64,000 nucleotides of DNA from an uncultured Candidatus Peribacteria bacterium (GCA_964538865.1 CAZIHU010000002.1:30163-94162), one strand, 5' to 3'; positions 4,136 to 35,771 are shown, counted from the first letter of the stretch. Numbers and translations: made by a program. Notes: a model not told the origin generated them from the letters alone.

Positions 4136-5077
4136 TTAATAAACAAAAATACCAACCATCAAAGGAATATAAAAAAGAGCAAAAACCGTACTTAACAAAA
4201 CAGCAACAGCAGCCTTTTCCGGATGAGCCTTAAGCTCAGTCGCCAAAGTCACAGTATTAGCCGCCAGAGGAACGATCGCCATCAAAATAAAAATCCCATA
4301 AACCGCCGAATCATAAAATTGAAAAAACTGCCTATCCAGCGCGACAAGAGAGAGCATGATAATCGGCCAGACAATAAATTTTGCCAAAAAAGACAAAGAA
4401 ATAAATTTAAAATCAAAAGCACGAATACAAACTGTCGCTAGCCCCATCCCGATAATCATCATCCCAAGCAAGCTGTAAGCCCCCTTGAAATACTCGATAG
4501 TCGTAAGCCCAATCTCCCCGAGATTAAGATTTAATAAATTGCAGATAATCCCAACAAAAAAAGCATAAATCGTCGGCAGCCGCACCACCTTCATCAAACT
4601 TTCACGAGCAGTATAGTTGCCTTTAGCCGTAATATAAAAACCCAAAGAATTTTCATAAAAAATATATCCAAGAATCGCCAATACCGCTAAACAAAAAGCT
4701 TCATCACCAAACAACATCAAAGCAACAGGCAGCCCAAAATAACCAGTATTCCCAGCACCTGCAGTAAACGCCAAAATATTCTTAGTCGAATCATTCTTGT
4801 AAACAATTTTTCCAATCCCAAAAAACACAAGACACATGCTGCAGCAAATCAAAAAGAACAAAACCGGCAACGACAAATTCGCAAGAGTCAACTCAGCCGA
4901 AAAAGTCCCATAAAAAACCACCGCCGGAGCAATGATATAGATAAGAAGCTTGGCCACAGTCTCCCTCTGTGCACCCAGAACCTTCGCCGCAATAAACCCC
5001 AAAAGAATCATCAAATACAGCGGAATCAGCTTGAGCAGGAGTGTGAGGAAGATTGTCATGGACCCAGTATTACACAT
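4136..5077 (-). CDS. AEC (auxin efflux carrier) family membrane transporter
   Basis: 313 aa, about 10 hydrophobic segments, N-terminal LLKLIPLYLMILLGFIAAK and overall layout typical of AEC/membrane transport protein family. Confidence 0.75.
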   Translation of the reverse strand: MCNTGSMTIFLTLLLKLIPLYLMILLGFIAAKVLGAQRETVAKLLIYIIAPAVVFYGTFSAELTLANLSLPVLFFLICCSMCLVFFGIGKIVYKNDSTKNILAFTAGAGNTGYFGLPVALMLFGDEAFCLAVLAILGYIFYENSLGFYITAKGNYTARESLMKVVRLPTIYAFFVGIICNLLNLNLGEIGLTTIEYFKGAYSLLGMMIIGMGLATVCIRAFDFKFISLSFLAKFIVWPIIMLSLVALDRQFFQFYDSAVYGIFILMAIVPLAANTVTLATELKAHPEKAAVAVLLSTVFALFYIPLMVGIFVY

Positions 5078-5737: not shown

Positions 5738-5929
5738 TTATTTTTTCTTGAAAAATTTAGGGTAATTCTTGATCATCCTCCAGTGCCCAATCACATGTAA
5801 AATCATCAGAAATAGAGTAATGCCGGCAAAAACCTCATGAATATCTTCAAACTCATCGCCAGTAATGTAAGTGGCTACAAAAGAGATTAGCAAGAGAATT
5901 CCGATGATTGCGCTAAGTTTCGGTTTCAT
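5738..5929 (-). CDS. small two-TM membrane protein
   Basis: 63 aa, two hydrophobic helices, start overlaps upstream stop by 4 nt. Confidence 0.45.
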   Translation of the reverse strand: MKPKLSAIIGILLLISFVATYITGDEFEDIHEVFAGITLFLMILHVIGHWRMIKNYPKFFKKK

Positions 5930-6630
5930 AATTCTTTAGAGGTAAAAGTTCCAGAAGCCCAGTCCCAAGTTACTTCAAGAAGCTGAATGTCTGAATAAAC
6001 TTCTTCCAAATAAAAAGTCGTCCCATGCTGAGGCAAGGTATAAAGGATATTATAATACATATCATCAGGAAAAGATTCGCCATACGTCGCTTCATATTTT
6101 TCCTCAAAAAGATCCCACTGATAAACAAGATCCGTACTATGTTCAGGCAAAACTTCATCAGTAATATCCGTATAAACCCCATCGTCATACCTCAAAAAAG
6201 TAAGCCACTGCTCACACATAGGCCCACACCCACGAGTATCAATCGCAACAACATCATTCCCGTCTTCCGCCACAAAAACAGTAAAAGTCATTGATCCATC
6301 CAAAAACAACCCAACATCAAGCTCAATATAATAATTGTCCTCGTCTACGTAGGAACTCTCGAGAATAGGCTCTCGCATATCCTCCCCGATCGGCGGATCT
6401 AAGTATTCAATAGGTATGTCATAATAGTAATCGATGACAGACATTGCTTCGGCTTCTTCGGTGGGTTCTTCCTCAACAGGCTCAATATCTTCTGCGACCT
6501 CTTCTTGCGGTTCTTCGACGACGATTTCGGTTTCATCCGTGGGAGCCGGCTCCCTCGTCGTCGCCGTGCCGCCACACGAAAAAGCTACTAACAACAGGAG
6601 TGCGACACAGTAAAGTGAGAGTTTTTTCAT
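5926..6630 (-). CDS. acidic lipoprotein, hypothetical
   Basis: ORF track 5926..6660; likely start at internal MKKLSLYCVALLLLVAFSCGG (lipobox AFSC); very acidic mature part. Confidence 0.6.
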   Translation of the reverse strand: MKKLSLYCVALLLLVAFSCGGTATTREPAPTDETEIVVEEPQEEVAEDIEPVEEEPTEEAEAMSVIDYYYDIPIEYLDPPIGEDMREPILESSYVDEDNYYIELDVGLFLDGSMTFTVFVAEDGNDVVAIDTRGCGPMCEQWLTFLRYDDGVYTDITDEVLPEHSTDLVYQWDLFEEKYEATYGESFPDDMYYNILYTLPQHGTTFYLEEVYSDIQLLEVTWDWASGTFTSKEL

Positions 6631-6770
6631 GATGGAAAAATTACGAAATTTCAAAAGCACTTTACAGGAAAAGGGAGGACGAGGGTAGGGGGATGATGTT
6701 ATAACCGAACAACTATAACTTTACGTCAAACCATTAATATAACTGAATGACAACTGCAGCTTGCGCTATA

Positions 6771-7933: not shown

Positions 7934-8428
7934 ATGATTGAAGAAATCCTCACCCTCCTCTGGCTCTTCCTCCCCGCAGGCGTCGCCAACATGAGCCCTG
8001 TGCTCTTCAAGTGGTTGCCGGTCGCAAATTATCCAATTCATGCCAAGAAACTTGGTAAAAATAAAACTTGGCGCGGTCTTCTTGCCGGGGTAGTGACAGC
8101 AACTCTTGTCGTTTACTTGCAGCAATGGATCGCCCTTGTCGATTATTCAGCAATCAATCCTCTCATCCTCGGTCCTCTTCTTGGAGCAGGAGCGTTGATT
8201 GGTGATGCGGTTGAAAGCTTTTTCAAACGTCGTCACGGTATTAAGCCCGGAAAACCTTGGATTCCCTTCGATCAAATCGACTGGATCGTCGGCGCGGTTG
8301 TTTTTGCGGAGATTTATGTAAGAATTGGACTGCTCGAAGCCCTAGCCGTCATCGTGATTTTCGGTCTTTTGCACCCGCTTACGAATCTAATCGGATACTT
8401 CCTCAAGATTCGCAAAGTGAAGATTTAA
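7934..8428 (+). CDS. carS: CDP-archaeol synthase family (CarS/DUF46) membrane protein
   Basis: 164 aa; LFLPAGVANMSPVLF N-terminus, KTWRGLLAGV, and GDAVESFFKRRHGIKPGKPWIPFDQIDW match the conserved CarS signature regions. Confidence 0.75.
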   Translation: MIEEILTLLWLFLPAGVANMSPVLFKWLPVANYPIHAKKLGKNKTWRGLLAGVVTATLVVYLQQWIALVDYSAINPLILGPLLGAGALIGDAVESFFKRRHGIKPGKPWIPFDQIDWIVGAVVFAEIYVRIGLLEALAVIVIFGLLHPLTNLIGYFLKIRKVKI

Positions 8429-13741: not shown

Positions 13742-13820
13742 AAATCCGACATTCTACATTCGATATTCCAAATCCCACATTCAGCATTCGAAATCCGACA
13801 TTCCAAATTCAAGATTCCAA
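13742..13820. repeat. 7-nt periodic tandem array (ACATTCG family, about 11 units)
   Basis: aaatccg acattct acattcg atattcc aaatccc acattca gcattcg aaatccg acattcc aaattca agattcc; overlaps the last codons of the S41 peptidase gene. Confidence 0.8.
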
Positions 13821-15023
13821 ATACAAAAGCGCCTCCTCAAACTGCTCATCTTCTTCAGTTTCATAATCCTGCGAAACCAAAATATCAGGAGTAATTCCAG
13901 TATCATCAATGCTTCTACCGGCAGGGGTATACCATTTAGCAACAGTCAGCCGTAAACTCGATCCATCGCTCAATTCCTCAACAATCTGCACACTTCCTTT
14001 TCCGAAAGTCTGCTCACCGATAACAATACCAAGTTCATAATCCTGAATAGCACCCGCTACAATTTCAGCTGCAGAAGCAGAACCACTATTCGCCAGAACA
14101 ACCAGGGGTAAGCCCTCCAGAGCAGATTTCCCGGAAGTATAGTGAATTTCGTTATTCTCCTCATCCTTCATCTTCACAACGACAGCCTTTTCAGTACCTT
14201 CAATAAAATCAGACAAAACATCAACAGAAGTATCAAGATACCCTCCTCCGTTATTCCTAACATCCAAAATCACGCCTTTGACATCATTTAACAAAATCTC
14301 ATTAACAGCCTCATGAAACTCATTAATAGTATCATCACCAAACTGATAAATGCTAACGTACGCAATATCCGAATTTTCCCCAACAAACTCCCAATCAACA
14401 CTATCAATTTGAACAGTATCTCTCTCAATTTCAAAAACCAAATAATCCTCCTCTCCTTCTCGAATAATAGTAAGCTCAACAATCGTCCCTTTCTCACCTC
14501 GAATCGCCATCACAGCATCCATGATAGTCATCTCACTCGCAATCTCGCCATCAATCAGATAAACAATATCACCAGGCAGTAAAAACTCCTCAGCAGGCGC
14601 ACCTTTTATCGGGGTAATAATTACAAGCTCACCATCCTCCACAGTCAACTCAGCACCAACCCCCTCAAGCTCGCCACCCATATTTTCCATAAACTCAAGT
14701 GTCTCATCAGGATCCATAAAGTCCGTATAAGGGTCACCGATAGCCGAAACCATACCATCAACAGCACTCCAAAGCATTTCCTCATCATTAAGCAAAGTCT
14801 CATCTATATAATATTCATCAAGAAGCTCCCAAGTATCCCAAAAAAGTTCAAGATCAATCTCCTCATCCTCAATTACCTCCTCTTCATCCTCCGTCACCTG
14901 TTCTATCCAGTCAATCCCCTCTACATCATAATAAAAATACGCCCCCGTCCACCCGATCATAAAAAGCACAACCATGGACAAAAACGTCTTAAGCGGGTTC
15001 TTCCTGTTATAGTAGTATTTCAT
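13809..15023 (-). CDS. ctp: S41 family C-terminal processing peptidase
   Basis: ORF track 13809..15065 starts at TTG inside a heptad array; likely start MKYYYNRKN; PDZ region then GGGYLD and catalytic SASAAEI / TFGKGS motifs. Confidence 0.85.
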   Translation of the reverse strand: MKYYYNRKNPLKTFLSMVVLFMIGWTGAYFYYDVEGIDWIEQVTEDEEEVIEDEEIDLELFWDTWELLDEYYIDETLLNDEEMLWSAVDGMVSAIGDPYTDFMDPDETLEFMENMGGELEGVGAELTVEDGELVIITPIKGAPAEEFLLPGDIVYLIDGEIASEMTIMDAVMAIRGEKGTIVELTIIREGEEDYLVFEIERDTVQIDSVDWEFVGENSDIAYVSIYQFGDDTINEFHEAVNEILLNDVKGVILDVRNNGGGYLDTSVDVLSDFIEGTEKAVVVKMKDEENNEIHYTSGKSALEGLPLVVLANSGSASAAEIVAGAIQDYELGIVIGEQTFGKGSVQIVEELSDGSSLRLTVAKWYTPAGRSIDDTGITPDILVSQDYETEEDEQFEEALLYLES

Positions 15024-15037
15024 TTTGTTTTTTTTAG

Positions 15038-15067
15038 CTTGCAACTTGCAACTTGCAGCTTGCAATT
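15038..15067. repeat. 7-nt periodic tandem array (CTTGCAA x4)
   Basis: cttgcaa cttgcaa cttgcag cttgcaa directly upstream of the peptidase gene; unit contains palindrome TTGCAA. Confidence 0.8.
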
Positions 15068-19916: not shown

Positions 19917-19977
19917 GACATTGCATGTTAGATAATAAATACAGGAAAAACTTATACCCTACCTGCCCAAGTCAGAA
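19917..19977 (-). promoter_or_regulatory. duplicated upstream region, copy A
   Basis: About 85 percent identical to 20221..20285; contains GGTAGGGTATAAG and CTAACATGCAATGTC immediately before ATG. Confidence 0.5.
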
Positions 19978-20220: not shown

Positions 20221-20300
20221 AACATTGAATGTTAGATAAAAATAAATACAGGAAGAACTTATACCCTACCTACCCAAATCGTGTCAAACTTTTTTCATAA
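20221..20300 (-). promoter_or_regulatory. duplicated upstream region, copy B, with sigma70-like promoter
   Basis: TTGACA-18 nt-TATAAG, then palindrome AACATTCAATGTT abutting the ATG. Confidence 0.5.
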
Positions 20301-22174: not shown

Positions 22175-23029
22175 ATGACAGACAAAGAACTATACAAATT
22201 ATGCTGCGAATGTGGCGCGAAAGCTCGGAAATGGACAAAGAAATTCGCCGAATTGTTACCGAAAGTTTATAAGAGAAAGTTGTGGAAAAAACATGGCTTC
22301 TACTCAGTCGAACATTTTGCAGCAGAGCTTGCTGGGATGAATCATGAAACAACCAAGAAGATTCTAGGATTACATAGGAGGCTTGAGGACAAACCTAAAC
22401 TCAAAGCAGAAATTGTCAATGAAGGATGGGCAAAAGTAAGAGTTGCAGCAGCAATCCCTGTTTCAGAAGAGAAACAAGTGCAGTTAGTTAAATCATTATC
22501 AAAAAGAGCGCTACAGCAGTATGCAAAAACAGCCAAGCAAGAGGGAGCCGGCTCCCTCTCTGAACCTGTAAGATTGAGTTTTACAGTCAAGCCGGAAGTC
22601 GAGCTCAGGCTAAGAAAATTCCGCCAAAAGCTAGAAAAAGAGCGGAAAGAAGCGATCGGTCTGGGAGAAGCACTCGAAGAACTTCTCAAACTTACAGAAG
22701 AACCCGAAAAGAAGACTCAAAAATCAAAGGGAACAACCGGTCGCAACCCTTCAGCCCAGAAGAAGCGAGAAACCAACAACAACGGCCAATGCTCGTTCCC
22801 AGGTTGCAACAAGCCACACACCTGTTACCACCATCCAGATAGATATGCTGCCACGCAAAACCATGACCGAATAGTTGCTCTCTGCCATGAGCACCATCAG
22901 CTTGCTCACGCCGGCTATATCGAGAACGAACACGATCCACCTGAGAAATGGCGTCTTCGCGAAACACCCAAGCTCAATGCGATCGATCTCAAATACCAAG
23001 AGCACATGAAGCGGGCTCAGGCGCCGTGA
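22175..23029 (+). CDS. HNH endonuclease domain protein
   Basis: 284 aa; C-terminal CSFPGCNKPHTCYHHPDRYAATQNHDRIVALCHEHHQLAH (Cys/His HNH core); TTAATC-17-TATAAT then TTTAAC upstream. Confidence 0.75.
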   Translation: MTDKELYKLCCECGAKARKWTKKFAELLPKVYKRKLWKKHGFYSVEHFAAELAGMNHETTKKILGLHRRLEDKPKLKAEIVNEGWAKVRVAAAIPVSEEKQVQLVKSLSKRALQQYAKTAKQEGAGSLSEPVRLSFTVKPEVELRLRKFRQKLEKERKEAIGLGEALEELLKLTEEPEKKTQKSKGTTGRNPSAQKKRETNNNGQCSFPGCNKPHTCYHHPDRYAATQNHDRIVALCHEHHQLAHAGYIENEHDPPEKWRLRETPKLNAIDLKYQEHMKRAQAP

Positions 23030-23066: not shown

Positions 23067-25148
23067 GTGAGCACAATCACCATAATTCGCAACATACAAA
23101 CATCGCATGCGCTTTACCATTTTCATCCAAACTATGGTAAATTGAACCCCGAAATGATGCTCAAAAAAACACAAAAGGAACCTCTGGAAGATGCAGTTTC
23201 AGGACGAAATTTACTCCAATTTGCGCGAAGAGCGTATCAGGTAACGATACGTCGACGAGTGATGAGCCTCCTGCAGTCAAATTGGATAAATTGCAGTCGA
23301 AAATGTATTTTCCAGAGGTTCCAGCAATACATATTCCTAGCGACCATCCTCCTGATCCCATTGGTGTTCAACCCATGGGGATTCGACATGTACGAAATCC
23401 CAAAAAACACGCTCCTAAAAATCGGCATACTCGCGACAATAATCGCAACCCTCATCGCAGGATGGAAAAACAAAAAGAAAACTTTCCATATCACCAAAGA
23501 ACAGATTTACGCAATCGCACTCTTCCTCTTAATCCTGGGGCTTTCATTAATAATCTCACTAAGACCAGAAATCAGTTTCTGGGGCTCTTATTTCAGACAA
23601 GGCGGAGTAGTAAACATGTTGTTCTACATCGCACTATTTCTTTTGGCGGTAAATATTTTTAAAGAAAAAAAGAACAGACAAACATTCCTGAAATCACTAT
23701 CAATAGTCGGGTTAATAATCAGCGTATATGCGATTTTACAAAAACTCGGAATAGACATTTTTTCAGCAGAGACAACAGCAATTTTCGACGGCAGAAGCTT
23801 CTCAACTTTAGGCAATCCAACATCGTTAGGAGCATTCTTGCTCTTCCCAATATGGGGCGAGATCTATTTACTTTTCAAGAACAAAAACAAGAAAAAAAGC
23901 ATACCAGCATTGATCGTCATGATCGCAGCACTGATATGTACAAGGAACAGGGCAAGTATGGTAGCTCTAATCGCAACCGGATTCTTAGCCTTAGTACGCA
24001 GATTCAAGAAAAACAAAAAAGTCATCGCAGGGATAATCGCCGGAGTAATAATCGCAGGCATCGTCTTCACGGGCATATATGCTCAAGATATCAGGTCCCT
24101 TGGATCGCGAGGAGAAATTTGGGGGAGTAGCTTAGAAATCATCCGAGACAATCCAATTCATGGGTACGGGATGGAATCGTTCTCATTTATGTTTGAAAAA
24201 TACGTTGATGCGGATTTTTTCCAGTATGAGGATTATGAAAACCTTGTAGACAGACCTCATAACGAACCCCTTGAGATATGGATACATCTAGGACTGCTGG
24301 GATTCATCTTTTATTTGGGGCTGGTGATTTTTTGCTTAAAAACTTACTGGGCAAAAGGGCACTTCGCAGCTCTCGCGATACTCTCGTTATTTATAACCAA
24401 TTTATTCAGCTTCTCACTGGTTACGCATTATGCGTTCTTGGTGATGTTTTTGGCGCTGATCGTGGATAACAAGAAAAAAATAACGATCAAAAACAACGAC
24501 CTCACCAAAGCAAGTGCGGTTGTGCTAATTATCCTCATGCTGGGAGGCATCATGCTGCACGGACGCATATTTTTGGGTGACTTGGCTCTCAAGCAAGCTT
24601 TTACACAAATCTCAACACAGCATTTAGAAGAAGCAATAGACAAAGCACCTTACTACTTAGAAGTTTATGAAGAAGCCTACGCAATATACTATCCATTAGC
24701 GGTGTACGTCGGGGATGAATATTTGGAAAAAGCAATATCGGTGAATGAAAAAGCACTCGAAATGAGTGCAAACAGCTTAAAATCACTGCTAAACAGGGCA
24801 AGGCTAGAAATCTTCCTTGGGGATTATGAATCCGCAGAAGACACCTATCTATCCATCAACGAAAACATAGCTCCTCACCCACTAACATACGAGCATTGGG
24901 GGAACATGTATTTCGATTGGGGTTTATATGAACATGCAGAGCTTATATACGATGAATTACTCGCGCTAATGCCAAATAGCTGGGAAATTTCCCAGGAAGG
25001 CACTGAAGAACATAGAATATTCTGGAAAGATCACGCGGATTTCGCAGAGACACTAGCAGAAATAATGATAACCTACGAAATCGTAGGCAGGACGGACGAG
25101 GCTGAATATCTTCTCGAAATAATACAAAAAGCGACTCTCTCCGAATAG
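23067..25148 (+). CDS. O-antigen ligase (Wzy_C)-like polytopic membrane protein with C-terminal TPR-like repeats
   Basis: 693-aa ORF (GTG start doubtful; ATG at 23154 MMLKK is an alternative); about 10 TM segments, motif HNEPLEIWIHLGLLG typical of O-antigen ligase family, helical repeat tail. Confidence 0.7.
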   Translation: MSTITIIRNIQTSHALYHFHPNYGKLNPEMMLKKTQKEPLEDAVSGRNLLQFARRAYQVTIRRRVMSLLQSNWINCSRKCIFQRFQQYIFLATILLIPLVFNPWGFDMYEIPKNTLLKIGILATIIATLIAGWKNKKKTFHITKEQIYAIALFLLILGLSLIISLRPEISFWGSYFRQGGVVNMLFYIALFLLAVNIFKEKKNRQTFLKSLSIVGLIISVYAILQKLGIDIFSAETTAIFDGRSFSTLGNPTSLGAFLLFPIWGEIYLLFKNKNKKKSIPALIVMIAALICTRNRASMVALIATGFLALVRRFKKNKKVIAGIIAGVIIAGIVFTGIYAQDIRSLGSRGEIWGSSLEIIRDNPIHGYGMESFSFMFEKYVDADFFQYEDYENLVDRPHNEPLEIWIHLGLLGFIFYLGLVIFCLKTYWAKGHFAALAILSLFITNLFSFSLVTHYAFLVMFLALIVDNKKKITIKNNDLTKASAVVLIILMLGGIMLHGRIFLGDLALKQAFTQISTQHLEEAIDKAPYYLEVYEEAYAIYYPLAVYVGDEYLEKAISVNEKALEMSANSLKSLLNRARLEIFLGDYESAEDTYLSINENIAPHPLTYEHWGNMYFDWGLYEHAELIYDELLALMPNSWEISQEGTEEHRIFWKDHADFAETLAEIMITYEIVGRTDEAEYLLEIIQKATLSE

Positions 25149-25174: not shown

Positions 25175-25705
25175 CTAATTTACTTCGTCATAAATCTCAT
25201 ACAAGAGATTCGCAAGACCTTCTAGAGTCCAGCTAGAATAGCCGACTTCGTCATGAAGATCTTCGATATAATCTACAACAATACCTCGGTTATATGCGCT
25301 CTGAACAGATTGATTAATGCCAATTGCGTCTAGCGTCCAAGTCGAGTAGCCAACCTCATCGTGGAGATCGTCAATTTCATTGGTAAGCCAAAGTCCAACA
25401 TAAGCCGCCATATCATATTGACGTATTGCCATCTCCTCCAAAGTCCAAGTTGAGTGGCCAACTTCATCGTGAAGTTCCGCAATCATGTCCTCAAGATCAC
25501 AGTTGGTGGTCTCGCAATCGCCAAAAAAATCCGGCAAAGCAGATTCAAGCTCTCCCAACTGTTCCTTTTCCAGGTCGGTCAGCAATTTCCCTTGCCAAGC
25601 GACGCCACTTGCGCCTGTGATGGCAAGCGTAAGAACCGCACCTAAAACGAATGCACCGAGCAGTTTCAGATGGTTCTTCTTTTTTGCTTCATGTAATCCA
25701 AGCAT
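25175..25705 (-). CDS. membrane-anchored protein with three HDEVG[HY]S[TS]WTL[ED] repeats
   Basis: 176 aa; N-terminal TM helix; repeat AELHDEVGHSTWTLEE / DDLHDEVGYSTWTLDA / EDLHDEVGYSSWTLEG. Confidence 0.55.
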   Translation of the reverse strand: MLGLHEAKKKNHLKLLGAFVLGAVLTLAITGASGVAWQGKLLTDLEKEQLGELESALPDFFGDCETTNCDLEDMIAELHDEVGHSTWTLEEMAIRQYDMAAYVGLWLTNEIDDLHDEVGYSTWTLDAIGINQSVQSAYNRGIVVDYIEDLHDEVGYSSWTLEGLANLLYEIYDEVN

Positions 25706-25723: not shown

Positions 25724-26896
25724 TTAATTTTCAATTACTAATGACATCCCAACCTCCCCAAAAGCATACACTATTTCAGAATCATCAGGCAGCTGCCTGA
25801 TACAACCGTGACTAACGGGTATCCCAATATGATCCAAAGCCTCGTACCAGAAAGCACCGCCATCAGTCGCAAGATAAGGCAAAGCATGCAAACCGTGCCC
25901 CCACTTGGTGAACCCCATCCAGTTCGGCATATGATAATGCGGCCAATCTCCTCCCACACGAAGTTCTTGTTTATTCAAAATAGAATAAGTCCCAGTTGGC
26001 GTAGGAGTATCATAAGCACCGGTACTAACAGGTAACTCATAAATCGCTACCTCGCCAACAAAAAGCGTCATTTGCTGATCGGAAAGATCCACATGAATCC
26101 ATTTTTCCAACCCATCGAACTCAGTACTATCGGTAGTAAATGAAATAACATCCATAATTCCCGCATCAATCCCATCAGTAAAACCAACCTTTATATCAAC
26201 AGCAGCCACAGCTTCATCAATCCACCTCACACCCTCAGCAACAGGAGCAAAGAACTCTTTATACCAGACATCGCCCCAAGGAGCTTTACTCGTAAACGTA
26301 AAAGTCGCAGTCTCCTCCGGATAAACAAAATTTTCAGCCATCTCAATTCGACTGTCATTTAACCATCCACTCACAGCAGTCATTTCGCCTCCAAAAACAC
26401 TCGACCTCCCATAATCAGCAGCAGTCGCAAGATTTACCTCAACCTGATTTTCACAATAATTATTCTTAAACCACGGCGCCGTCCCCGTATTCAAAACAGT
26501 AACCGTAACCGCGAACTCTTCTCCCGGTCCAATAGCCTCATCAGATATAACCACATCAACAAGCTCACCTTCATAAACCGCATCACTCGGAGCTACATAA
26601 AGACACTCAGCCATCATGCCGGTCTTTTCCTCCACAAAAATCACCTCATCCTCATCTTCCGCACTATCATGCAATTCATCATCTTCCCTAACCAGATAAA
26701 TCCGTCTCCCATACATAGCCGTCGTCTCCTGCTTATGCAAAGTATTCGCAAAAACATGCTTCGAAAACCTCTGCGCAACAAACTCAGGCGTCTGGTCCTC
26801 GTAATTCGCTTGCGTAAAGATCATCGACATTGCAAACAAAGAAAATGCAAGCAGGACGGATGCAAAGAGATGCTTCTTAGGTTTAACAGGATGCAT
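25724..26896 (-). CDS. L,D-transpeptidase (YkuD domain) with N-terminal extension
   Basis: 390 aa; signal/TM at N-terminus; C-terminal catalytic region ...HGLHALPY...GIPVSHGCIRQ. Confidence 0.8.
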   Translation of the reverse strand: MHPVKPKKHLFASVLLAFSLFAMSMIFTQANYEDQTPEFVAQRFSKHVFANTLHKQETTAMYGRRIYLVREDDELHDSAEDEDEVIFVEEKTGMMAECLYVAPSDAVYEGELVDVVISDEAIGPGEEFAVTVTVLNTGTAPWFKNNYCENQVEVNLATAADYGRSSVFGGEMTAVSGWLNDSRIEMAENFVYPEETATFTFTSKAPWGDVWYKEFFAPVAEGVRWIDEAVAAVDIKVGFTDGIDAGIMDVISFTTDSTEFDGLEKWIHVDLSDQQMTLFVGEVAIYELPVSTGAYDTPTPTGTYSILNKQELRVGGDWPHYHMPNWMGFTKWGHGLHALPYLATDGGAFWYEALDHIGIPVSHGCIRQLPDDSEIVYAFGEVGMSLVIEN

Positions 26897-27075
26897 TTTT
26901 TGTATTTGTTTTAAATATTATTATGTAATTATAGAACAAAACAGAAGAAAAATCAACCCCTAAGTTGGGCTTGACGCACATAGTCGTTGAAGCGTAACTG
27001 CGGTTCTAGGGTTGACGCAAGATAACCAAGATATGTAAAGTACGCACAGTGTTGGTTTAAAACAGAGACACCCAA

Positions 27076-27160
27076 GACGCCGAAACGAAGTGCAGGCGTC
27101 AAGTACTATTAACCCGTTTCACCCATCCGGGTATAAACGCGATAGCGAAACACCACACCC
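27076..27160. repeat. dispersed hairpin module (variant copy) in the leader of the Tyr-rich gene
   Basis: GACGCC-N13-GGCGTC then AGTACTATTAACCCGTTTC...GCGAAACACCACACCC, related to 40521..40625 and 57848..57948. Confidence 0.55.
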
Positions 27161-27230
27161 AGCATGGCCAAAAACCAGAAGTAATAGTCAGCTTTAAACA
27201 TAAAAAATAAAAACATCTAACCACCACAAA

Positions 27231-30200
27231 ATGGTAAACAAAACGACTAGATGGCTAGTCAGCTTTTTCGTATTCGGACTAGCTTTAGCGGTTGCGCTAA
27301 CAGGAGCGCAGCTAACTTTCGCCGATGTCGCGGAAGAAGGGGATGCAGTAGCCACTTCGTACGGAGCGTACGAATATGACTACTATTACAATGGCGCCTG
27401 TGTCTCATATTACGACAGCTATTCGTACACCTATTATTACATCTGTGATGATGGTTGTTATTATTACGACCACACTTATTACGGATATTATTGGTGTCCG
27501 GACGGGTCGTACAACTATTATGCGGCTAGCGACGACAGCAGCAGCACTACATCGTATGGGACATACGAATACGACTATTACTACAGCTCAAGCTGTACCG
27601 GATATGAAGATTGGTATGGATACTACTATTACATCTGTGATGACGAATGTTATTACTACAATGAGTATTATTACGGATACTACTGGTGTCCTGATGGGTC
27701 TTACACCTACTACAGCGGAAGTGCTGGGACAACAAGCGAAGTAGAGTACGGAAGCTACGAGGCTGATTACACCTACAACTCCGACTGTACTGCATACGAG
27801 GACTGGTACGGATACTACTATTACATCTGTCCAGATGGATGTTACTACTATGACTCGTACTACTACGGATACTACTACTGTCCAGATGGGTCATATAACT
27901 ACTACAGTGCGGGCGCTAATACAGACTTTTACGACGGGTATTACGAATATGACTACAGCACCAACACTGACTGTACCGATTATTACAACTACTACTTCTG
28001 TCTTGACGACTGTTATTACTACGATATCTACTATTATTGTAATAACACTGGGTACAACTACTTCTATGATGGGACAACTTGGGAATACTATTGTTGGAGT
28101 TATGCAGAGTACAACGGATACATCTACTGTTATGACGACAGTTGTTACTACTACCCTGATGGATCATCTAGCTGTGAAAGTACTGGCACAAGTTATGATG
28201 AAGGATATTTTGAATATGATTACTACTACAACACATCATGTACTTCATATTGGGATAGCTGGTCAGGGTACTATTACTACTACTGTCCGGACAGTTGTTG
28301 GTACTATGATGAGTACTATTATGGATACTACTACTGTGACGACTCATGGACTTACTACTACTATGAATCGGACATAGATTGGGACTACTACTGTTATGAC
28401 TACTACAACTACGGAACTTATATCTATTGTTACGATGATTATTGCTACTACTATGAAGACGGATCTTCATCATGTGACAGTACTACCGATTATGGTTGGG
28501 ACAGCTACTGCTGGGATTATGTGATTTATTACGACTACGATTCGTATGACTATGATACTTACACATACGAAGAGTATATCTACTGTTACGATGATGATTG
28601 TTACTACTATGCAGATGGTGACTATTATTGTTACAGCTATGATTACACATGGGATGATTACTGCTACAGCTACACAAATTACGGAAGCTACATCTACTGT
28701 TATGACGATGATTGCTACTACTATGACGACGGATCATACTACTGCTACACAACATACGATGACTATTATGAGGGGTATTACGAATGGACTTATGATACGA
28801 GCTGGGATTGTAGCGCATACTGGGATGATTATTACTACACCTATTATTACTACTGTCCGGATGGGTGTTGGTACTATGATGACTACTATTACGGCTACTA
28901 TTATTGTGACGATTCAGGGACTTACTATTACTACGAAGATTCTTCTCTAGATTGGAGCAGTTATTGTTATGACTACTCGGACTACGGAAGCTACATCTAT
29001 TGTTGGGATGACGATTGTTACTACTATGACGACGGATCCTATTACTGTTATACATACGACTATTACGACTATTCGGAAGGATATTACGAATACGACTACT
29101 GGTATAACTGGGAATGTGTCTGGTATGACTACTACTATTACTGTCCCGACGGATGTTATTACTACGACGAAGCTTTAGGCTACGATTACTATTGGTGTAC
29201 CGATAGTGGAACCACTTACTACTATTACTGGTATTACGACGATTGGTACTACGACGGATATTATGAATACGACTACTGGTATAACGGAGACTGTTACAGT
29301 TACTGGGACAGTTACGACTACACCTATTATTACTACTGCTTCGACAGCTGTTGGTACTACTGGGATTACTACTATTGTGACAACAGTGGGTCTACCTACT
29401 ACTACGACACATACGATGACTACTACTATGACTGGTACGAAGACTGTTACTACGATGACTGGGGCGGATATTGGTACTGTTACGACGACGGATGTTATTA
29501 CTACGATGATGGATCAACATGGTGTACCACAGACTACTATGGAGACTCCACATGTGAAGAGTATTACGACTACTACAGTGGTACCTATTATTACTACTGT
29601 TACGACGATGGATGCTGGTATTACGACACCTATTACTACTGTGATGGGTTGATGTACTACTACGACACCGACTACTACTACAGCTCAAACACATGGGAGA
29701 ACTGTACATATTACGGAGACTACTACTATTGTTGGGATGATGGATGTTACTACTACGATAGTGGTTACGTAGAATGTGATAGTTACTGGTACGACTATGA
29801 CGTAAATGAAGAATGTTGGTACGATGATTGGTACGACTATTGGTATTGTGACGATGGATGTTACTACTACGGTGACTATTACTACTGTGATGGCATCTAC
29901 TACTACTACGACGATACCTACTACTACGACGAATACTACGACTACTGGGGTGACTATTGTGAAGACTACGGAGACTACTACTACTGTTGGGATGACGGAT
30001 GCTACTACTATGATGACGGATCCATCTACTGTGATGGATACTACGACAACTACTACTACGACGACGGATGTTATTTCGACAACTGGTACGGGTACTACGT
30101 CTGTGATGACGGATGTTACTACAACGACTACATGTACTGGTGTGACGACGGATACTATTACTACTACGACGACTACAACTATGACTGGTATGACAACTAC

Positions 30201-31994
30201 TACGATTACTACGATGACTACTACTACTACGATGATTATTACTACGATCCGTTAACAGGTTGTTCATACTACTATGATGGATGGTACGATTGTAATGATT
30301 ACTACTACGGATACTTCGAGTACGATTATTACTACAACGAATCATGTGAAGAGAACTACAACAGTTGGGATGGAGAATACTACTACTGTCCGGATGATTG
30401 TTGGTACATGGCAGACTACTACTGGTGTGACGGATACACCTATTACTACACCGATTACTACACTGATTGGTATGACGATTACTGGTATGACTACGACTAC
30501 TGGTGGGATTGTTACGACTATGGATACTACTACTATTGTCCATATGAAGGATGTTACTACTACGATGACGGGTATGTATGGTGTGAATACGATTATTACA
30601 TAGACTACACATACGACTGTTGGTACGACTCAAACGGATACTACGTCTGTGACGACGGATGTTGGTACTACGACGAATATTACTACTGTGACGGATACCA
30701 GTACTGGTATGACTGGGCTTACTACTACGATTACGTGGGTGACTGGTGGGATACCGACTGTTATTACTACGACGGATATTGGTGGGACGGATGGTGGTAT
30801 GACGGTTACTACTACTGTACCGACGGATGTTACTACTATGATGACGGATACACATGGTGTGAATTCGACTACTACTGGGATTACGAAGACAACTACTACG
30901 ATTGTTGGTACGACAGCCTAGGGTACTACGTATGTAACGACGGATGCTACTACTACGATTACTACTACTACTGTGATGGGTACTTGTACTACTACGAAGA
31001 CTACTGGTACGACTACTGGTACGACTACTACGATTACGACTACGACTACTGGGATTACTACTGTGACGAGTACTATGACGACTACTTCGGATACTATTAT
31101 TACTGTTGGGACGACGAATGCTGGTACTTCAATGACTACTACTATTGTGACGGAGAGTACTACTACTACTACACCGATTACACCGACGACACATGGGATG
31201 GATGTAGCTTTGGAACAGATACAGTCCATGGAGACTACTACTACTGTGCAGACGACGGATGCTTCTACTATGACTACTGGTATGAATGTACAACCACTGG
31301 ATACTACGAAGACTGGTATGAAGAAACATACGACGATACTGTGACAACCACAGATTACTCAGATGTAGAACCGTGGGATCCATACATCGAAGCTATCGAC
31401 TACCTAAGTGAAGCAGAAGTTATCGAAGGATATGACGACGGTACGTACAAACCAAACGCAGATGTAAACCGTGTAGAAGCGCTAAAGATCATCTTCGCAA
31501 CTCTCGACAATGTACTTGAGATTTACGAACTTGATACAAGCAGCAACTACATCTCGTCCGACATGGAATTCACAGACATTGAAGACGGATCATGGTACAT
31601 CCCATACCTAGAAGAAGCGTACTTGCTTGGAATCATCGAAGGATACGAAGACGGCACATTCCAGCCAGGATCCACAGTCAACAAGGTCGAAATATTGAAG
31701 ATGGTTATCGAAGCATTCAACCTTGAAGAAATGATGGCTGACGAGATAACAGAAGTTCTGTACGCCGACGTTGACACTTCTCAATGGTACGCGCCTTACG
31801 TACAGCTAGCCAATGAGATGGGTATCTACTACGATCTGACCGTTGGTGACAACTTCGAACCAGCTGAATTGATGACACGTGGTGAAATCGCAGATCTCGT
31901 TTACAGGTTTGCAGACGCAGTCTACCTATACGATGATGCAGTTGAAGCTGCAGCTGCAGCTGGAAAGGCAGGACACAAATTAGGACGCAGATAG
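27231..31994 (+). CDS. giant secreted Tyr/Asp/Cys/Trp-rich repeat protein with three C-terminal SLH domains
   Basis: 1587 aa; signal peptide, about 1330 aa of Y/D/C/G/W-dominated 4-Cys modules, then SLH-like repeats (YSDVEPWDPYIEAIDYL..., FTDIEDGSWYIPYLEEAYLLGIIEGY..., YADVDTSQWYAPYVQLANEMGI...); followed by a strong terminator. Confidence 0.8.
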   Translation: MVNKTTRWLVSFFVFGLALAVALTGAQLTFADVAEEGDAVATSYGAYEYDYYYNGACVSYYDSYSYTYYYICDDGCYYYDHTYYGYYWCPDGSYNYYAASDDSSSTTSYGTYEYDYYYSSSCTGYEDWYGYYYYICDDECYYYNEYYYGYYWCPDGSYTYYSGSAGTTSEVEYGSYEADYTYNSDCTAYEDWYGYYYYICPDGCYYYDSYYYGYYYCPDGSYNYYSAGANTDFYDGYYEYDYSTNTDCTDYYNYYFCLDDCYYYDIYYYCNNTGYNYFYDGTTWEYYCWSYAEYNGYIYCYDDSCYYYPDGSSSCESTGTSYDEGYFEYDYYYNTSCTSYWDSWSGYYYYYCPDSCWYYDEYYYGYYYCDDSWTYYYYESDIDWDYYCYDYYNYGTYIYCYDDYCYYYEDGSSSCDSTTDYGWDSYCWDYVIYYDYDSYDYDTYTYEEYIYCYDDDCYYYADGDYYCYSYDYTWDDYCYSYTNYGSYIYCYDDDCYYYDDGSYYCYTTYDDYYEGYYEWTYDTSWDCSAYWDDYYYTYYYYCPDGCWYYDDYYYGYYYCDDSGTYYYYEDSSLDWSSYCYDYSDYGSYIYCWDDDCYYYDDGSYYCYTYDYYDYSEGYYEYDYWYNWECVWYDYYYYCPDGCYYYDEALGYDYYWCTDSGTTYYYYWYYDDWYYDGYYEYDYWYNGDCYSYWDSYDYTYYYYCFDSCWYYWDYYYCDNSGSTYYYDTYDDYYYDWYEDCYYDDWGGYWYCYDDGCYYYDDGSTWCTTDYYGDSTCEEYYDYYSGTYYYYCYDDGCWYYDTYYYCDGLMYYYDTDYYYSSNTWENCTYYGDYYYCWDDGCYYYDSGYVECDSYWYDYDVNEECWYDDWYDYWYCDDGCYYYGDYYYCDGIYYYYDDTYYYDEYYDYWGDYCEDYGDYYYCWDDGCYYYDDGSIYCDGYYDNYYYDDGCYFDNWYGYYVCDDGCYYNDYMYWCDDGYYYYYDDYNYDWYDNYYDYYDDYYYYDDYYYDPLTGCSYYYDGWYDCNDYYYGYFEYDYYYNESCEENYNSWDGEYYYCPDDCWYMADYYWCDGYTYYYTDYYTDWYDDYWYDYDYWWDCYDYGYYYYCPYEGCYYYDDGYVWCEYDYYIDYTYDCWYDSNGYYVCDDGCWYYDEYYYCDGYQYWYDWAYYYDYVGDWWDTDCYYYDGYWWDGWWYDGYYYCTDGCYYYDDGYTWCEFDYYWDYEDNYYDCWYDSLGYYVCNDGCYYYDYYYYCDGYLYYYEDYWYDYWYDYYDYDYDYWDYYCDEYYDDYFGYYYYCWDDECWYFNDYYYCDGEYYYYYTDYTDDTWDGCSFGTDTVHGDYYYCADDGCFYYDYWYECTTTGYYEDWYEETYDDTVTTTDYSDVEPWDPYIEAIDYLSEAEVIEGYDDGTYKPNADVNRVEALKIIFATLDNVLEIYELDTSSNYISSDMEFTDIEDGSWYIPYLEEAYLLGIIEGYEDGTFQPGSTVNKVEILKMVIEAFNLEEMMADEITEVLYADVDTSQWYAPYVQLANEMGIYYDLTVGDNFEPAELMTRGEIADLVYRFADAVYLYDDAVEAAAAAGKAGHKLGRR

Positions 31995-32016
31995 AAAAAA
32001 GCGCAATAAGCAAAAA

Positions 32017-32046
32017 GGGCCTCGCATCACGCGAGGTCCTTTTTTA
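32017..32046 (+). terminator. intrinsic terminator after the Tyr-rich gene
   Basis: GGGCCTCGC-ATCAC-GCGAGGTCC followed by TTTTTT. Confidence 0.7.
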
Positions 32047-33952: not shown

Positions 33953-34043
33953 TGTTAGTTTTTTTCAGCACGTAATTATTCCATATTTCCCCAAAAAATG
34001 CTAAATGTTTATTAGAGCTATATTGAAAAATCGCTTCCAATTC

Positions 34044-35771
34044 ATGAGAAAACTAATCCCCATCATCGCCATAATACTTCTAATAACCGCCTCACAACAG
34101 GCGGCAGCTTTTACAAGCGCTATCACAAGCCAAGAGTTGCAAGATAACATGACCCTTATTCTCCCATCCGCAAGCTCCTTAGAGAGCCTCGAATACCACT
34201 CAAACTGGACCGAAATCGAATACATCGAAACATCTTACGGGATCTCCGCACAATACGAAGCGCTTTACGATGATAAATACTCCTTGTCAACGGAACTTCC
34301 GACCATATATCAATACATCGTCGCCTACGAATCAGAATATGATCTGCAACTCGCATTCGACGATTTCCTCGCGAACGAAAAATTCGAAACCGGAGAATGG
34401 ATACTTCTAGAAGAAACGGAAACAAGCTTCAGTTACAAAACCGGAGCAGGCTCAGATATCGACTTGATAATGGATTATTCATCGGAATCAAACACCATCC
34501 ATTACGTAACCCAACAAGACAATCTCCTCATAGTGGTCAACTTTTACAGGAGTGGGGGAGTATACAATAGAGGCAATGTCTTAGCATACGAAGAATATAT
34601 TTTGAACTATGAAGACACGTTGTCTGTCCTAATGTCGGCCGCTTCGTACACAAAAGAAGCGATAGATTTTTATTTAGATGATATTGAGACGACCGGAACG
34701 CCGGAAGACTACGATTATTATTTGACATCATCGGACTACTATTTAGCTTTAAACGATTTTTACTCAATTCCGCTAAATGGATCGATCGAATTTGATATTT
34801 ATATAGATGAAACTTCAGAGATAGGAACAATTCTTGATACAAAAGGCATAAACAATCCTGAGTATGGATCGATTTCTTTGGGGATAGATGAAAACGCATT
34901 CCTGGATTTCAACCTGTACGATCCATATACGGAGTCGGGATGTGACGATTCTTCGGGTTGGCATCATATTTACTCCTCGGAGCAGACGGATCTTTATGAG
35001 TGGACCAATATCAAAATTGAGTATGGGGCGGATACTGGGATGAATATTTATGTTAACGATTATTTACAGGCACATTGCGAGGTTTATACTGATAGAAGTG
35101 ATGAAGTTTTGTACCTGGGGGATTATCCGATTGATATTATTGAGGAAAGCTTTGTCGGTTATATAAAAGACATAGCAACCTCATATTCTTTGAATGAAGA
35201 TGGCGAAAGAATCGATGATGTCATAGCTGAATATACGATTTTTACTGATGTAGGCGAAGATCATCAATATGCCGTGGCGATAGAATATTTAAAAGACAAC
35301 GGAATTATAAACGGCTATCCGGATGGGTCGTTTCAACCTGATCAAGAAGTGAATAGAGCAGAAATACTGAAGATGCTACTGCTGGGATTCGGATACGACG
35401 TGCCGGAAGCAGATTCAGAAAATCCATTCAGCGATGTGGAAACAGGAAGTTGGTATGAGGGGTACGTTCTCTATGCATATGATCTGGAAATCATTGCAGG
35501 ATACGCAGACGAAACATTTAAACCTGCTCAAAATGTGAATAAGGTTGAATTCTTAAAAATACTCACACGCAGTTACGGAATAGACCTGACAGATTATCCA
35601 GTGACGCTGCTCTATGGGGATACAATGATGACAGAATGGTATGCGCCATATGTGCAATATTCGAAGGATAATGAGCTGATGGATGTTGGTGAGGACGGAT
35701 ATTTCTACCCTGAAAACCCTGTGACAAGAGGGGAGGTGGCGGAGACGATATATAGGATGATTAACTTGTAA
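34044..35771 (+). CDS. secreted protein with LamG/concanavalin-like region and three C-terminal SLH domains
   Basis: ORF track 34005..35771; likely start MRKLIPIIAIILLITASQQAAA; SLH-like repeats FTDVGEDHQYAVAIEYLKDNGIINGY..., FSDVETGSWYEGYVLYAYDLEIIAGY..., YGDTMMTEWYAPYVQYSKDNEL... Confidence 0.75.
   Translation: MRKLIPIIAIILLITASQQAAAFTSAITSQELQDNMTLILPSASSLESLEYHSNWTEIEYIETSYGISAQYEALYDDKYSLSTELPTIYQYIVAYESEYDLQLAFDDFLANEKFETGEWILLEETETSFSYKTGAGSDIDLIMDYSSESNTIHYVTQQDNLLIVVNFYRSGGVYNRGNVLAYEEYILNYEDTLSVLMSAASYTKEAIDFYLDDIETTGTPEDYDYYLTSSDYYLALNDFYSIPLNGSIEFDIYIDETSEIGTILDTKGINNPEYGSISLGIDENAFLDFNLYDPYTESGCDDSSGWHHIYSSEQTDLYEWTNIKIEYGADTGMNIYVNDYLQAHCEVYTDRSDEVLYLGDYPIDIIEESFVGYIKDIATSYSLNEDGERIDDVIAEYTIFTDVGEDHQYAVAIEYLKDNGIINGYPDGSFQPDQEVNRAEILKMLLLGFGYDVPEADSENPFSDVETGSWYEGYVLYAYDLEIIAGYADETFKPAQNVNKVEFLKILTRSYGIDLTDYPVTLLYGDTMMTEWYAPYVQYSKDNELMDVGEDGYFYPENPVTRGEVAETIYRMINL

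Follow-up and report, generated by a model that had tools for sequence, protein, structure and literature searches.

What manner of protein is built almost entirely of tyrosine, aspartate, cysteine, glycine and tryptophan, and what might such a protein do on the surface of a bacterial cell? The question is raised by a single gene (27231–31994, + strand) in a 64,000-nucleotide stretch of DNA from an uncultured Candidatus Peribacteria bacterium (GCA_964538865.1, CAZIHU010000002.1:30163-94162), the whole of which is referred to here as the window. A sequence-only reading of the window had picked out this open reading frame (ORF) as 1587 residues long, opening with a signal peptide and closing with surface-layer (S-layer) homology (SLH) repeats, and both the frame and the signal peptide hold up, as do the other factual statements made in that reading. 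We are almost certain that the gene encodes a secreted, modular, wall-anchored surface protein of a groundwater bacterium of the Peregrinibacteria. As to the reading as a whole, we propose, with a probability of about 0.5, that the product is an SLH-anchored, disulfide-clasped, polyanionic and aromatic fibre that forms an adhesive and protective coat; the adhesive-coat function taken by itself is the tentative part, for which we would put the odds somewhat short of even.

The codon-level evidence comes from alignments of the conserved 424–437 codons of the body in five orthologs. In the Tyr frame, third-position differences are 2.5–6 times those at positions 1 and 2, the proportion of nonsynonymous differences (pN) is 0.06–0.21 against a synonymous proportion (pS) of 0.83–1.0, with synonymous sites saturated, and both synonymous codons are in use at 102 of the 123 invariant Tyr columns (TAT and TAC) and at 28 of the 34 invariant Cys columns. 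Together, these patterns indicate that the Tyr frame is translated and that the protein is under strong purifying selection. The 4764-nt gene is, moreover, identical and without frameshifts in three sources, namely the window and two JGI metagenome contigs (samples 3300009374 and 3300009332), on both of which the exact protein is called. Repeat-driven misassembly is unlikely because the gene contains no exact internal DNA repeat of at least 24 nt and its tandem modules are 64–69% identical at the DNA level; earlier concerns that the ORF might reflect an assembly collapse, or might be frameshifted in independent assemblies, are thus not borne out. The view that no real protein exists here, the frame being wrong, the sequence a microsatellite-like expansion of TAC/GAC or the contig misassembled, can appeal to other frames that are also open, such as a 487-residue antisense ORF, and to GenBank annotators having called the +1 frame in an ortholog. 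It is refuted by the codon, frame, identity and repeat tests, since stops break the alternative frames and one uninterrupted ORF joins the signal peptide to in-frame SLH repeats, and its residual probability is negligible. Judged by these alignments, the Tyr-rich ORF is a real and conserved gene under protein-level purifying selection.

The computed composition of the body (residues 32–1365, 1334 residues) is extreme: 36.9% Tyr, 18.1% Asp, 7.9% Cys, 7.3% Gly and 5.7% Trp, the five together making up 75.9%, in good accord with the first estimate of 35–45% Tyr and about one fifth Asp. Aromatic residues total 43.5% and the redox-active Tyr, Cys and Trp 50.5%, with A+V+I+L+M+F contributing about 5%. 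We know of no characterised protein with as much as 37% Tyr along a stretch of 1334 residues, and in all other window ORFs of at least 150 residues the Tyr content is 1.5–10%. Acidic residues account for 22% of the body (some 300 carboxylates) and basic residues for none; indeed Lys and Arg, said at first to be missing from about 1330 residues, are absent across 1399 (residues 8–1406). The description of the protein as extremely acidic is likewise apt, as the mature chain of 197.6 kDa carries a net charge of about −337 at pH 7. Over the same span (window positions 27252–31448) trypsin has nowhere to cut, and a digest would yield the body as a single peptide.

The regular four-Cys modules noted by eye resolve into a complete count, the 106 Cys of the protein falling into 26 four-Cys modules and one two-Cys half-module. 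Spacing within a module follows C-x(8-24)-C-x(3-4)-C-x(8-13)-C. Long A-type modules have spacings of 15, 4 and 13 and a conserved N-terminal extension, EGYFEYDYxYN, and B-type modules have spacings of 12, 5 and 10 and end in CYYYDDGSxxC. Across 107 modules of the family the signature reads [G/T]-x-Y-Y-Y-C2-(x)-x-D-G-C3-[Y/W]-Y-Y-D-...-Y-Y-[Y/W]-C4-[D/E]-G. The first three modules, taken initially for tandem copies of about 64 residues, start 64–65 residues apart and are 62–69% identical in protein. Of the CYYYDDG-like strings, estimated at about 20, C[YWF]YY occurs 24 times, CYYY 18 times and CYYYDDG itself 6 times; the back-translated CYYYDDG pattern gives 0 matches in DNA shuffles of the window. 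The DG dipeptide is enriched 2.5-fold, as β-turns would predict.

A structure prediction, one of the checks originally suggested for single modules, was run with AlphaFold2 on residues 321–418, comprising two modules, with a 23-row alignment of paralogous and homologous modules, and gives a mean pLDDT of 88.7 and a pTM of 0.60. The model contains short β-strands after C1 and C3 and before C2 and C4, which makes two hairpins in each module. Together with the half-module, whose two Cys copy the C3–C4 hairpin, this arrangement suggests that disulfides pair C1 with C2 and C3 with C4. The earlier label “disulfide-knotted” is not supported as such: the regular four-Cys build stands, and in place of a knot we would expect two simple bonds per module, each closing one hairpin. 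Foldseek comparison of the module model with PDB and BFVD returns nothing below E 3 (the best PDB match has E 7.3), and a module profile search of PDB sequences gives no match.

The C-terminal region of some 200 residues is the only part in which SLH repeats were anticipated, and it is there that PF00395 finds its three matches, between residue 1376 and about residue 1560 (E 3e-25; score 88.4 bits, Pfam gathering threshold 20.8). SLH is the sole family returned in a Pfam scan of the protein at E up to 1, and the corresponding NCBIfam scan gives one weak match, over the SLH region. All three repeats are homologous to the solved SLH trimer of Sap (3PYW; E 6.9e-15), positions 20–194 of the 222-residue C-terminal region aligning with chain residues 14–173. 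Trp is retained in all three repeats; the GIIxG position is VIEG in repeat 1 and GIIEG in repeat 2; and the TRAE position reads NRVE, NKVE and TRGE, leaving Arg in repeats 1 and 3. By homology and by these retained positions, the anchor qualifies as a genuine SLH domain. The combination of an export signal with a C-terminal SLH triplet homologous to that of Sap supports the idea, already put forward, that the protein is tethered to the cell wall. Pyruvyltransferase (CsaB) finds no match among the scanned ORFs of the 64-kb window.

Homologs, for which a search of metagenomic protein sets had been suggested, came to light when DNA collections were scanned with module motifs translated back into nucleotides. 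The scans yielded five ortholog loci: in the Peregrinibacteria genomes GW2011_GWF2_43_17 (full length, 1346 residues) and RIFOXYA2_FULL_41_18 (1132 residues), in SO_2016_GW1_135 (partial, from a metagenome-assembled genome (MAG) labelled Gracilibacteria) and on two metagenome contigs, the last three deriving from a study of a Southern Ontario landfill and its groundwater. The Candidatus Peregrinibacteria MAGs that bear orthologs come from Rifle and from groundwater beside the Ontario landfill, both metal-rich aquifers. The orthologs are 65–72% identical to the window protein, with conserved Cys spacing, and all share the signal peptide, the Tyr/Asp/Cys modules and the SLH triplet. In the wall-proximal part of about 430 residues every Cys and many Tyr, Trp and Asp are invariant (mean column identity 79%), and the number of modules, about 26, 22 and 15, varies in the distal part.

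Beyond the orthologs, 1.84 billion representative proteins were searched exhaustively, with two weak matches, P0001 and P0002, as the only yield. P0002 (447 residues) and P0006 (441 residues) both combine a signal peptide with four modules (about 14% Tyr in P0002) and the same triplet of SLH repeats, and are shorter and less Tyr-rich. P0001 is a complete secreted protein of 276 residues (L022, 3167–3997, from an Ontario groundwater metagenome) in which a single type-A module sits at the C-terminus of an unrelated β-rich secreted domain. The occurrence of the module alone in P0001 and in four copies in P0002 and P0006 marks it as a portable domain, of which the giant Tyr-rich proteins are, by their sequences, an extreme and expanded form. 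A word-indexed protein search with body and whole-protein queries found no homologs, and the exact protein is absent from that collection; this null is a false negative caused by a low-complexity query, as phmmer run locally scores the orthologs at E 1e-162 to 1e-273. The database entries P0003 and P0005 are bare SLH tails without the Tyr-rich body. Single-motif matches in L004, L005, L010, L012 and L015, where no Tyr-rich ORF is present, were treated as chance, as was the one match in a scan of viral contigs with the CYYYDDG pattern. Pfam, NCBIfam, PDB sequence search and Foldseek gave nothing for the body, consistent with the initial failure to recognise any characterised family, and the literature searched contains no description of a Tyr-rich SLH or CPR (Candidate Phyla Radiation) protein. 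The Tyr-rich body belongs to no described family, and its module, with no relative in Pfam, NCBIfam or PDB, is previously undescribed.

Annotation probably accounts in part for the scarcity of the family in protein databases. In two GenBank assemblies (GCA_001788795.1 and GCA_001788805.1) the RIFOXYA2_FULL_41_18 ortholog appears as six Thr/Ile/Met-rich genes, every one of them called in the +1 frame, with a 157-residue SLH tail (P0007) as a separate entry, yet an uninterrupted ORF of about 1130 residues lies open there. The mis-called ortholog is at 5034–8474 of L017 and on L018 (MFXH01000007.1 and MFXI01000028.1, respectively), and the six deposited wrong-frame proteins are probably spurious. 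Gene callers can evidently shred such genes into wrong-frame fragments. The lack of Lys and Arg over 1399 residues makes the body invisible to standard shotgun proteomics based on trypsin, and for both reasons proteins of this type are likely to be under-counted.

How might such a protein work? We propose that it is exported through Sec and held non-covalently by its SLH trimer on an anionic, probably pyruvylated, secondary cell-wall polymer; an anchor at the C-terminus means that the N-terminal body points outward from the cell. The body would be a chain of 26 mini-domains of about 25–60 residues, each made of two Tyr-rich β-hairpins with Y-Y-Y(-Y) strands and D-G or D-D-G turns, each hairpin probably closed by its own disulfide, and the mini-domains would be joined by acidic, aromatic linkers. 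The result would be a stiff, protease-resistant and strongly anionic fibre or coat with Tyr and Trp lining its exposed faces, Asp keeping the chain soluble and self-repelling. Tyr dominates binding interfaces, and the aromatic platforms may contact polysaccharide or the cell surfaces of a host or substrate, giving the cell a multivalent adhesive and a protective outer coat. The wall-proximal 430 or so residues would act as a conserved stalk, and the distal array, through its variable number of modules, would set reach and avidity. In the sister class Peribacteria, large Cys-rich exported proteins have been proposed to function in attachment (PMC4736985).

Several observations weigh against this proposal. 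The TAC bias of the gene is explained by its strand and gives no sign of exceptional expression; the colinear conservation of the proximal part resembles that of a structural element more than that of a host-recognition protein in an arms race; and no carbohydrate-binding family or fold is detected with Pfam or with Foldseek against PDB. A 299-residue multi-module AlphaFold model, for which the alignment is shallow, is of low confidence (pLDDT 46, pTM 0.21), so the rod shape is without model support. Disulfides in an often anoxic aquifer also call for an oxidising system, and none is seen in the window, where the ORFs scanned gave no Dsb or VKOR homolog. The same two facts, the habitat and the lack of such a homolog in the window, would suit a body in which the four Cys of each module bind Zn or Fe to give a string of metal-stabilised knuckles, and two hairpins with a C2–C3 turn of 3–4 residues could place all four Cys at one pole. 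We find such knuckles quite unlikely: the conserved C-x9-C half-module mimics the C3–C4 hairpin but has too few Cys for a four-ligand site, CxxC knuckles are absent from the modules, and the resemblance that Foldseek reports to a zinc-ribbon model from a phage is insignificant (E 9.2). The Tyr-rich protein might also be a lattice-forming S-layer or sheath subunit, its body self-assembling into a two-dimensional array that covers the cell. An SLH anchor, a promoter and terminator of its own, strong conservation and synteny all fit, and the Peribacteria genome paper reports S-layer protein genes in that class (PMC4736985). S-layer proteins, however, are typically 40–60% hydrophobic, have few or no sulfur amino acids and measure 40–170 kDa (PMC4232325), from which a protein with 7.9% Cys and about 5% A+V+I+L+M+F in its body and a mature mass of 197.6 kDa departs on every count; a module number that shifts from 15 to 26 between orthologs is hard to fit with a fixed lattice, and the other conserved SLH protein nearby could fill the S-layer role just as well. 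On balance we regard the lattice as unlikely.

We give the same low weight to the possibility that the tyrosines are O-glycan acceptors, decorated by the Wzy_C/TPR protein encoded two genes upstream to yield a bacterial proteoglycan-like coat. In that protein (23067–25148) Wzy_C is followed by C-terminal TPR repeats, as has been described for the O-oligosaccharyltransferases WsfB and PglL, Tyr O-glycosylation is reported to be frequent in S-layer glycoproteins (PMC2943079), and amino-sugar synthesis is emphasised as a heavy investment in the Peribacteria paper (PMC4736985). The gene is conserved nearby in three of four lineages, being in place in the window, in L014 and in L017/L018, but not in L013; in GW2011_GWF2_43_17 it is not found between PcrA and YkuD. 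Its product has only weak NCBIfam matches (IctB, repeat-unit polymerase) and may be a wall-polymer polymerase or ligase, and most Tyr lie in predicted β-strands and are conserved position by position, which fits a structural role. Tyr and Asp are also classic Fe(III) ligands. A polyanion rich in both, with the charge and acidity given above and no basic residue in its body, from sites in metal-rich aquifers (Rifle and landfill groundwater), could bind cations or minerals, its carboxylates and phenolates sequestering Ca, Fe or other metals or controlling encrustation. This seems distinctly improbable, since acidity is common to the exported proteins of the organism rather than specific to this gene, and no metal-binding Pfam family is matched. 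Canonical Ca-binding loops (EF-hand-like DxDxDG and RTX GGxGxD) were considered and rejected, with 0 consensus matches in the body for both D-x-[DN]-x-[DN]-G and GGxGxD. A slimmer chance still attaches to a redox-active armour, in which Tyr and Trp, packed closely in a lattice tethered to the wall, would act as a sacrificial sink for radicals and oxidants by hole-hopping, or as an oxidatively cured, dityrosine-cross-linked shell when an anaerobic CPR cell without defences against reactive oxygen species meets oxygen. If true, it would be a new, extracellular form of protection, distinct from enzyme-based defence; peroxidase, laccase and tyrosinase were not found among the ORFs of these 64 kb of genome.

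An adhesive and protective coat can be set beside several known systems. Sap and EA1 of B. anthracis and SpaA and SlhA of Paenibacillus alvei likewise have three tandem SLH repeats and are secreted by a signal peptide; the ligand-binding Trp, Gly and Arg positions are kept in the Tyr-rich protein, and the TRAE position is also variable in SpaA (TRAE, TVEE, TRAQ). In contrast to Sap and SpaA, in which the anchor is N-terminal, the Tyr-rich protein has its anchor at the C-terminus; its passenger shares nothing with their crystallisation domains, and it comes from a CPR bacterium. SLH anchoring is thus already known, and what is new is a passenger mini-domain without relatives. The Cys-rich proteins of Peribacteria, from the same candidate phylum, average 1655 residues and about 7% Cys and carry a signal peptide; they are weakly similar to Myxococcus Cys-rich repeats, FG-GAP and pappalysin, and the paper that describes them does not mention tyrosine (PMC4736985). 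The Tyr-rich protein, compared with them by description only, matches no Myxococcus Cys-rich, FG-GAP or pappalysin profile. Apicomplexan oocyst and sporocyst wall proteins (PMC4776368) and the Bacillus spore-coat proteins CotC, CotU and CotG, all oxidatively cross-linked, are, as here, secreted structural proteins of high Tyr content, but they have no sequence relationship to the present protein, show a milder composition and possess neither the four-Cys module nor SLH. No peroxidase, laccase or tyrosinase of the kind that would go with such cross-linking is seen in the window. Mussel foot proteins (the Tyr/DOPA-rich Mfp-3/5 and the Cys/Tyr-rich Mfp-6; PMC13208468) resemble it in basing adhesion chemistry on Tyr and Cys. 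They are cationic, Lys-rich and largely disordered and need tyrosinase to make DOPA, whereas the Tyr-rich protein is strongly anionic, with a body free of Lys and Arg for which a folded structure is predicted. As a model for glycan binding by a single module, CBM1, hevein/CBM18 and CBM14 are disulfide-held domains of about 30–40 residues that expose Tyr and Trp, although they match the Tyr-rich module in neither profile nor fold and have a different Cys pattern.

The CPR accounts for a large part of bacterial diversity, and its members are believed to lead lives attached to other cells; to our knowledge almost nothing is known of their surface molecules. For the Peregrinibacteria, the Tyr-rich protein is a specific candidate, amenable to cloning, for a coat that is adhesive or protective. 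As a natural, hyper-aromatic β-hairpin polymer, presumably disulfide-clasped, it may also interest protein designers and materials scientists.

Table 1. Positions of the Tyr-rich gene, its parts and the features around it (window coordinates)
Feature	Position	Strand	Remarks
Tyr-rich gene, coding sequence	27231..31994	+	ATG start, 1587 codons plus stop, complete
Sec-type signal peptide	27231..27323	+	Residues 1-31 (MVNKTTRW..AQLTFA/D), read from sequence; pattern kept in orthologs
Distal module array	27324..30053	+	Residues 32-941; 18 four-Cys modules of long A and B types; number varies between orthologs
AlphaFold2-modelled segment	28191..28484	+	Residues 321-418; one A and one B module
Wall-proximal conserved module array	30054..31325	+	Residues 942-1365; colinear in five orthologs, all Cys invariant
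Two-Cys half-module	30261..30293	+	Residues 1011-1021; C-x9-C, conserved in all orthologs
Three SLH repeats	31356..31934	+	Residues 1376-1568; PF00395 and Sap alignment
Short C-terminal tail, Ala-rich and basic	31935..31991	+	Differs between orthologs, not conserved
Sigma-70-like promoter	27012..27041	+	TTGACG, 18 nt, TAAAGT; -35 TTGAC invariant in four orthologous loci
Leader	27042..27230	+	Without Shine-Dalgarno; ends in conserved A-rich TAAAAATAAAAAC..CTAACCACCACAAA right before ATG
Bidirectional intrinsic terminator	32014..32046	.	A-run, G+C-rich stem CCTCGC/GCGAGG, T-run
Wzy_C protein with C-terminal TPR, membrane	23067..25148	+	Wzy_C at residues 281-417; O-oligosaccharyltransferase architecture
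L,D-transpeptidase (YkuD)	25724..26896	-	Divergently transcribed; adjoins the Tyr-rich gene in every ortholog locus
Second SLH-anchored protein	34005..35771	+	588 residues, 10% Tyr, 0.3% Cys, no modules; syntenic in orthologous loci

The transcription unit is bounded by the promoter and terminator listed in Table 1, the latter a G+C-rich hairpin with a T-run that agrees with the strong terminator called at first sight. The A-rich end of the leader (27190–27230) precedes the ATG in four species, replacing a Shine-Dalgarno sequence. The gene lies on the strand that carries the minority of window genes. Third codon positions depend on strand throughout the window, + genes favouring TAC and GAC and − genes TAT and GAT, and GC skew is negative almost throughout. 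The TAC bias was considered as a sign of high expression and rejected, as it matches the strand-specific composition of other + genes. Cys is encoded by TGT in 90% of cases within the Tyr-rich gene, unlike in neighbouring genes.

Gene order around the locus is conserved: PcrA, (Wzy_C and a small ORF), YkuD, the Tyr-rich gene, NrdR, an HD phosphohydrolase, the second SLH protein, and then XerC, an ABC ATPase, DprA and the type IV pilus ATPase PilB. Neighbouring proteins are 50–80% identical between orthologous loci, and synteny and identity together place the window in a Peregrinibacteria (CPR) genome related to GWF2_43_17. The nearby second SLH protein had been noticed before and is present as tabulated; along with YkuD and PilB, it makes a neighbourhood that fits a role in the cell envelope. 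Window proteins with a signal peptide or an envelope role (5926–6660, 13809–15065, 25724–26896 and 34005–35771) are acidic and poor in Lys and Arg, and in cytoplasmic ones both residues are at normal levels; the organism appears to be characterised by an acidic exoproteome.

Between the Wzy_C gene and YkuD lies the ORF 25175–25705 (−), which encodes a small secreted or membrane protein with no family match and a weak partial match in L014 (37% over 84 residues); three direct repeats with a 108-nt (36-residue) period occupy 25198–25483. Upstream, at 22465–22661, lie 15 clustered substitutions in two patches, only 3 of the 15 changing an amino acid; apart from them, the window and contigs L001/L002 are identical over 24.7 kb. 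All 15 fall within ORF 22175–23029, whose product is Lys-rich and ends in an HNH-like Cys/His motif. A diversity-generating retroelement was considered for this site and rejected, the changes being mostly synonymous and a template repeat absent; the differences look like a small recombination tract. A 40-nt direct repeat (19934–19973 and 20241–20280; 93% identical, copies 307 nt apart) is located upstream of the gene for the PcrA-like helicase, within a long intergenic region. Finally, 7934–8428 (+) encodes a 164-residue membrane protein resembling CarS (CDP-archaeol synthase; PF01864, E 2.5e-26) in this bacterial genome, which may bear on unusual lipid metabolism in CPR.

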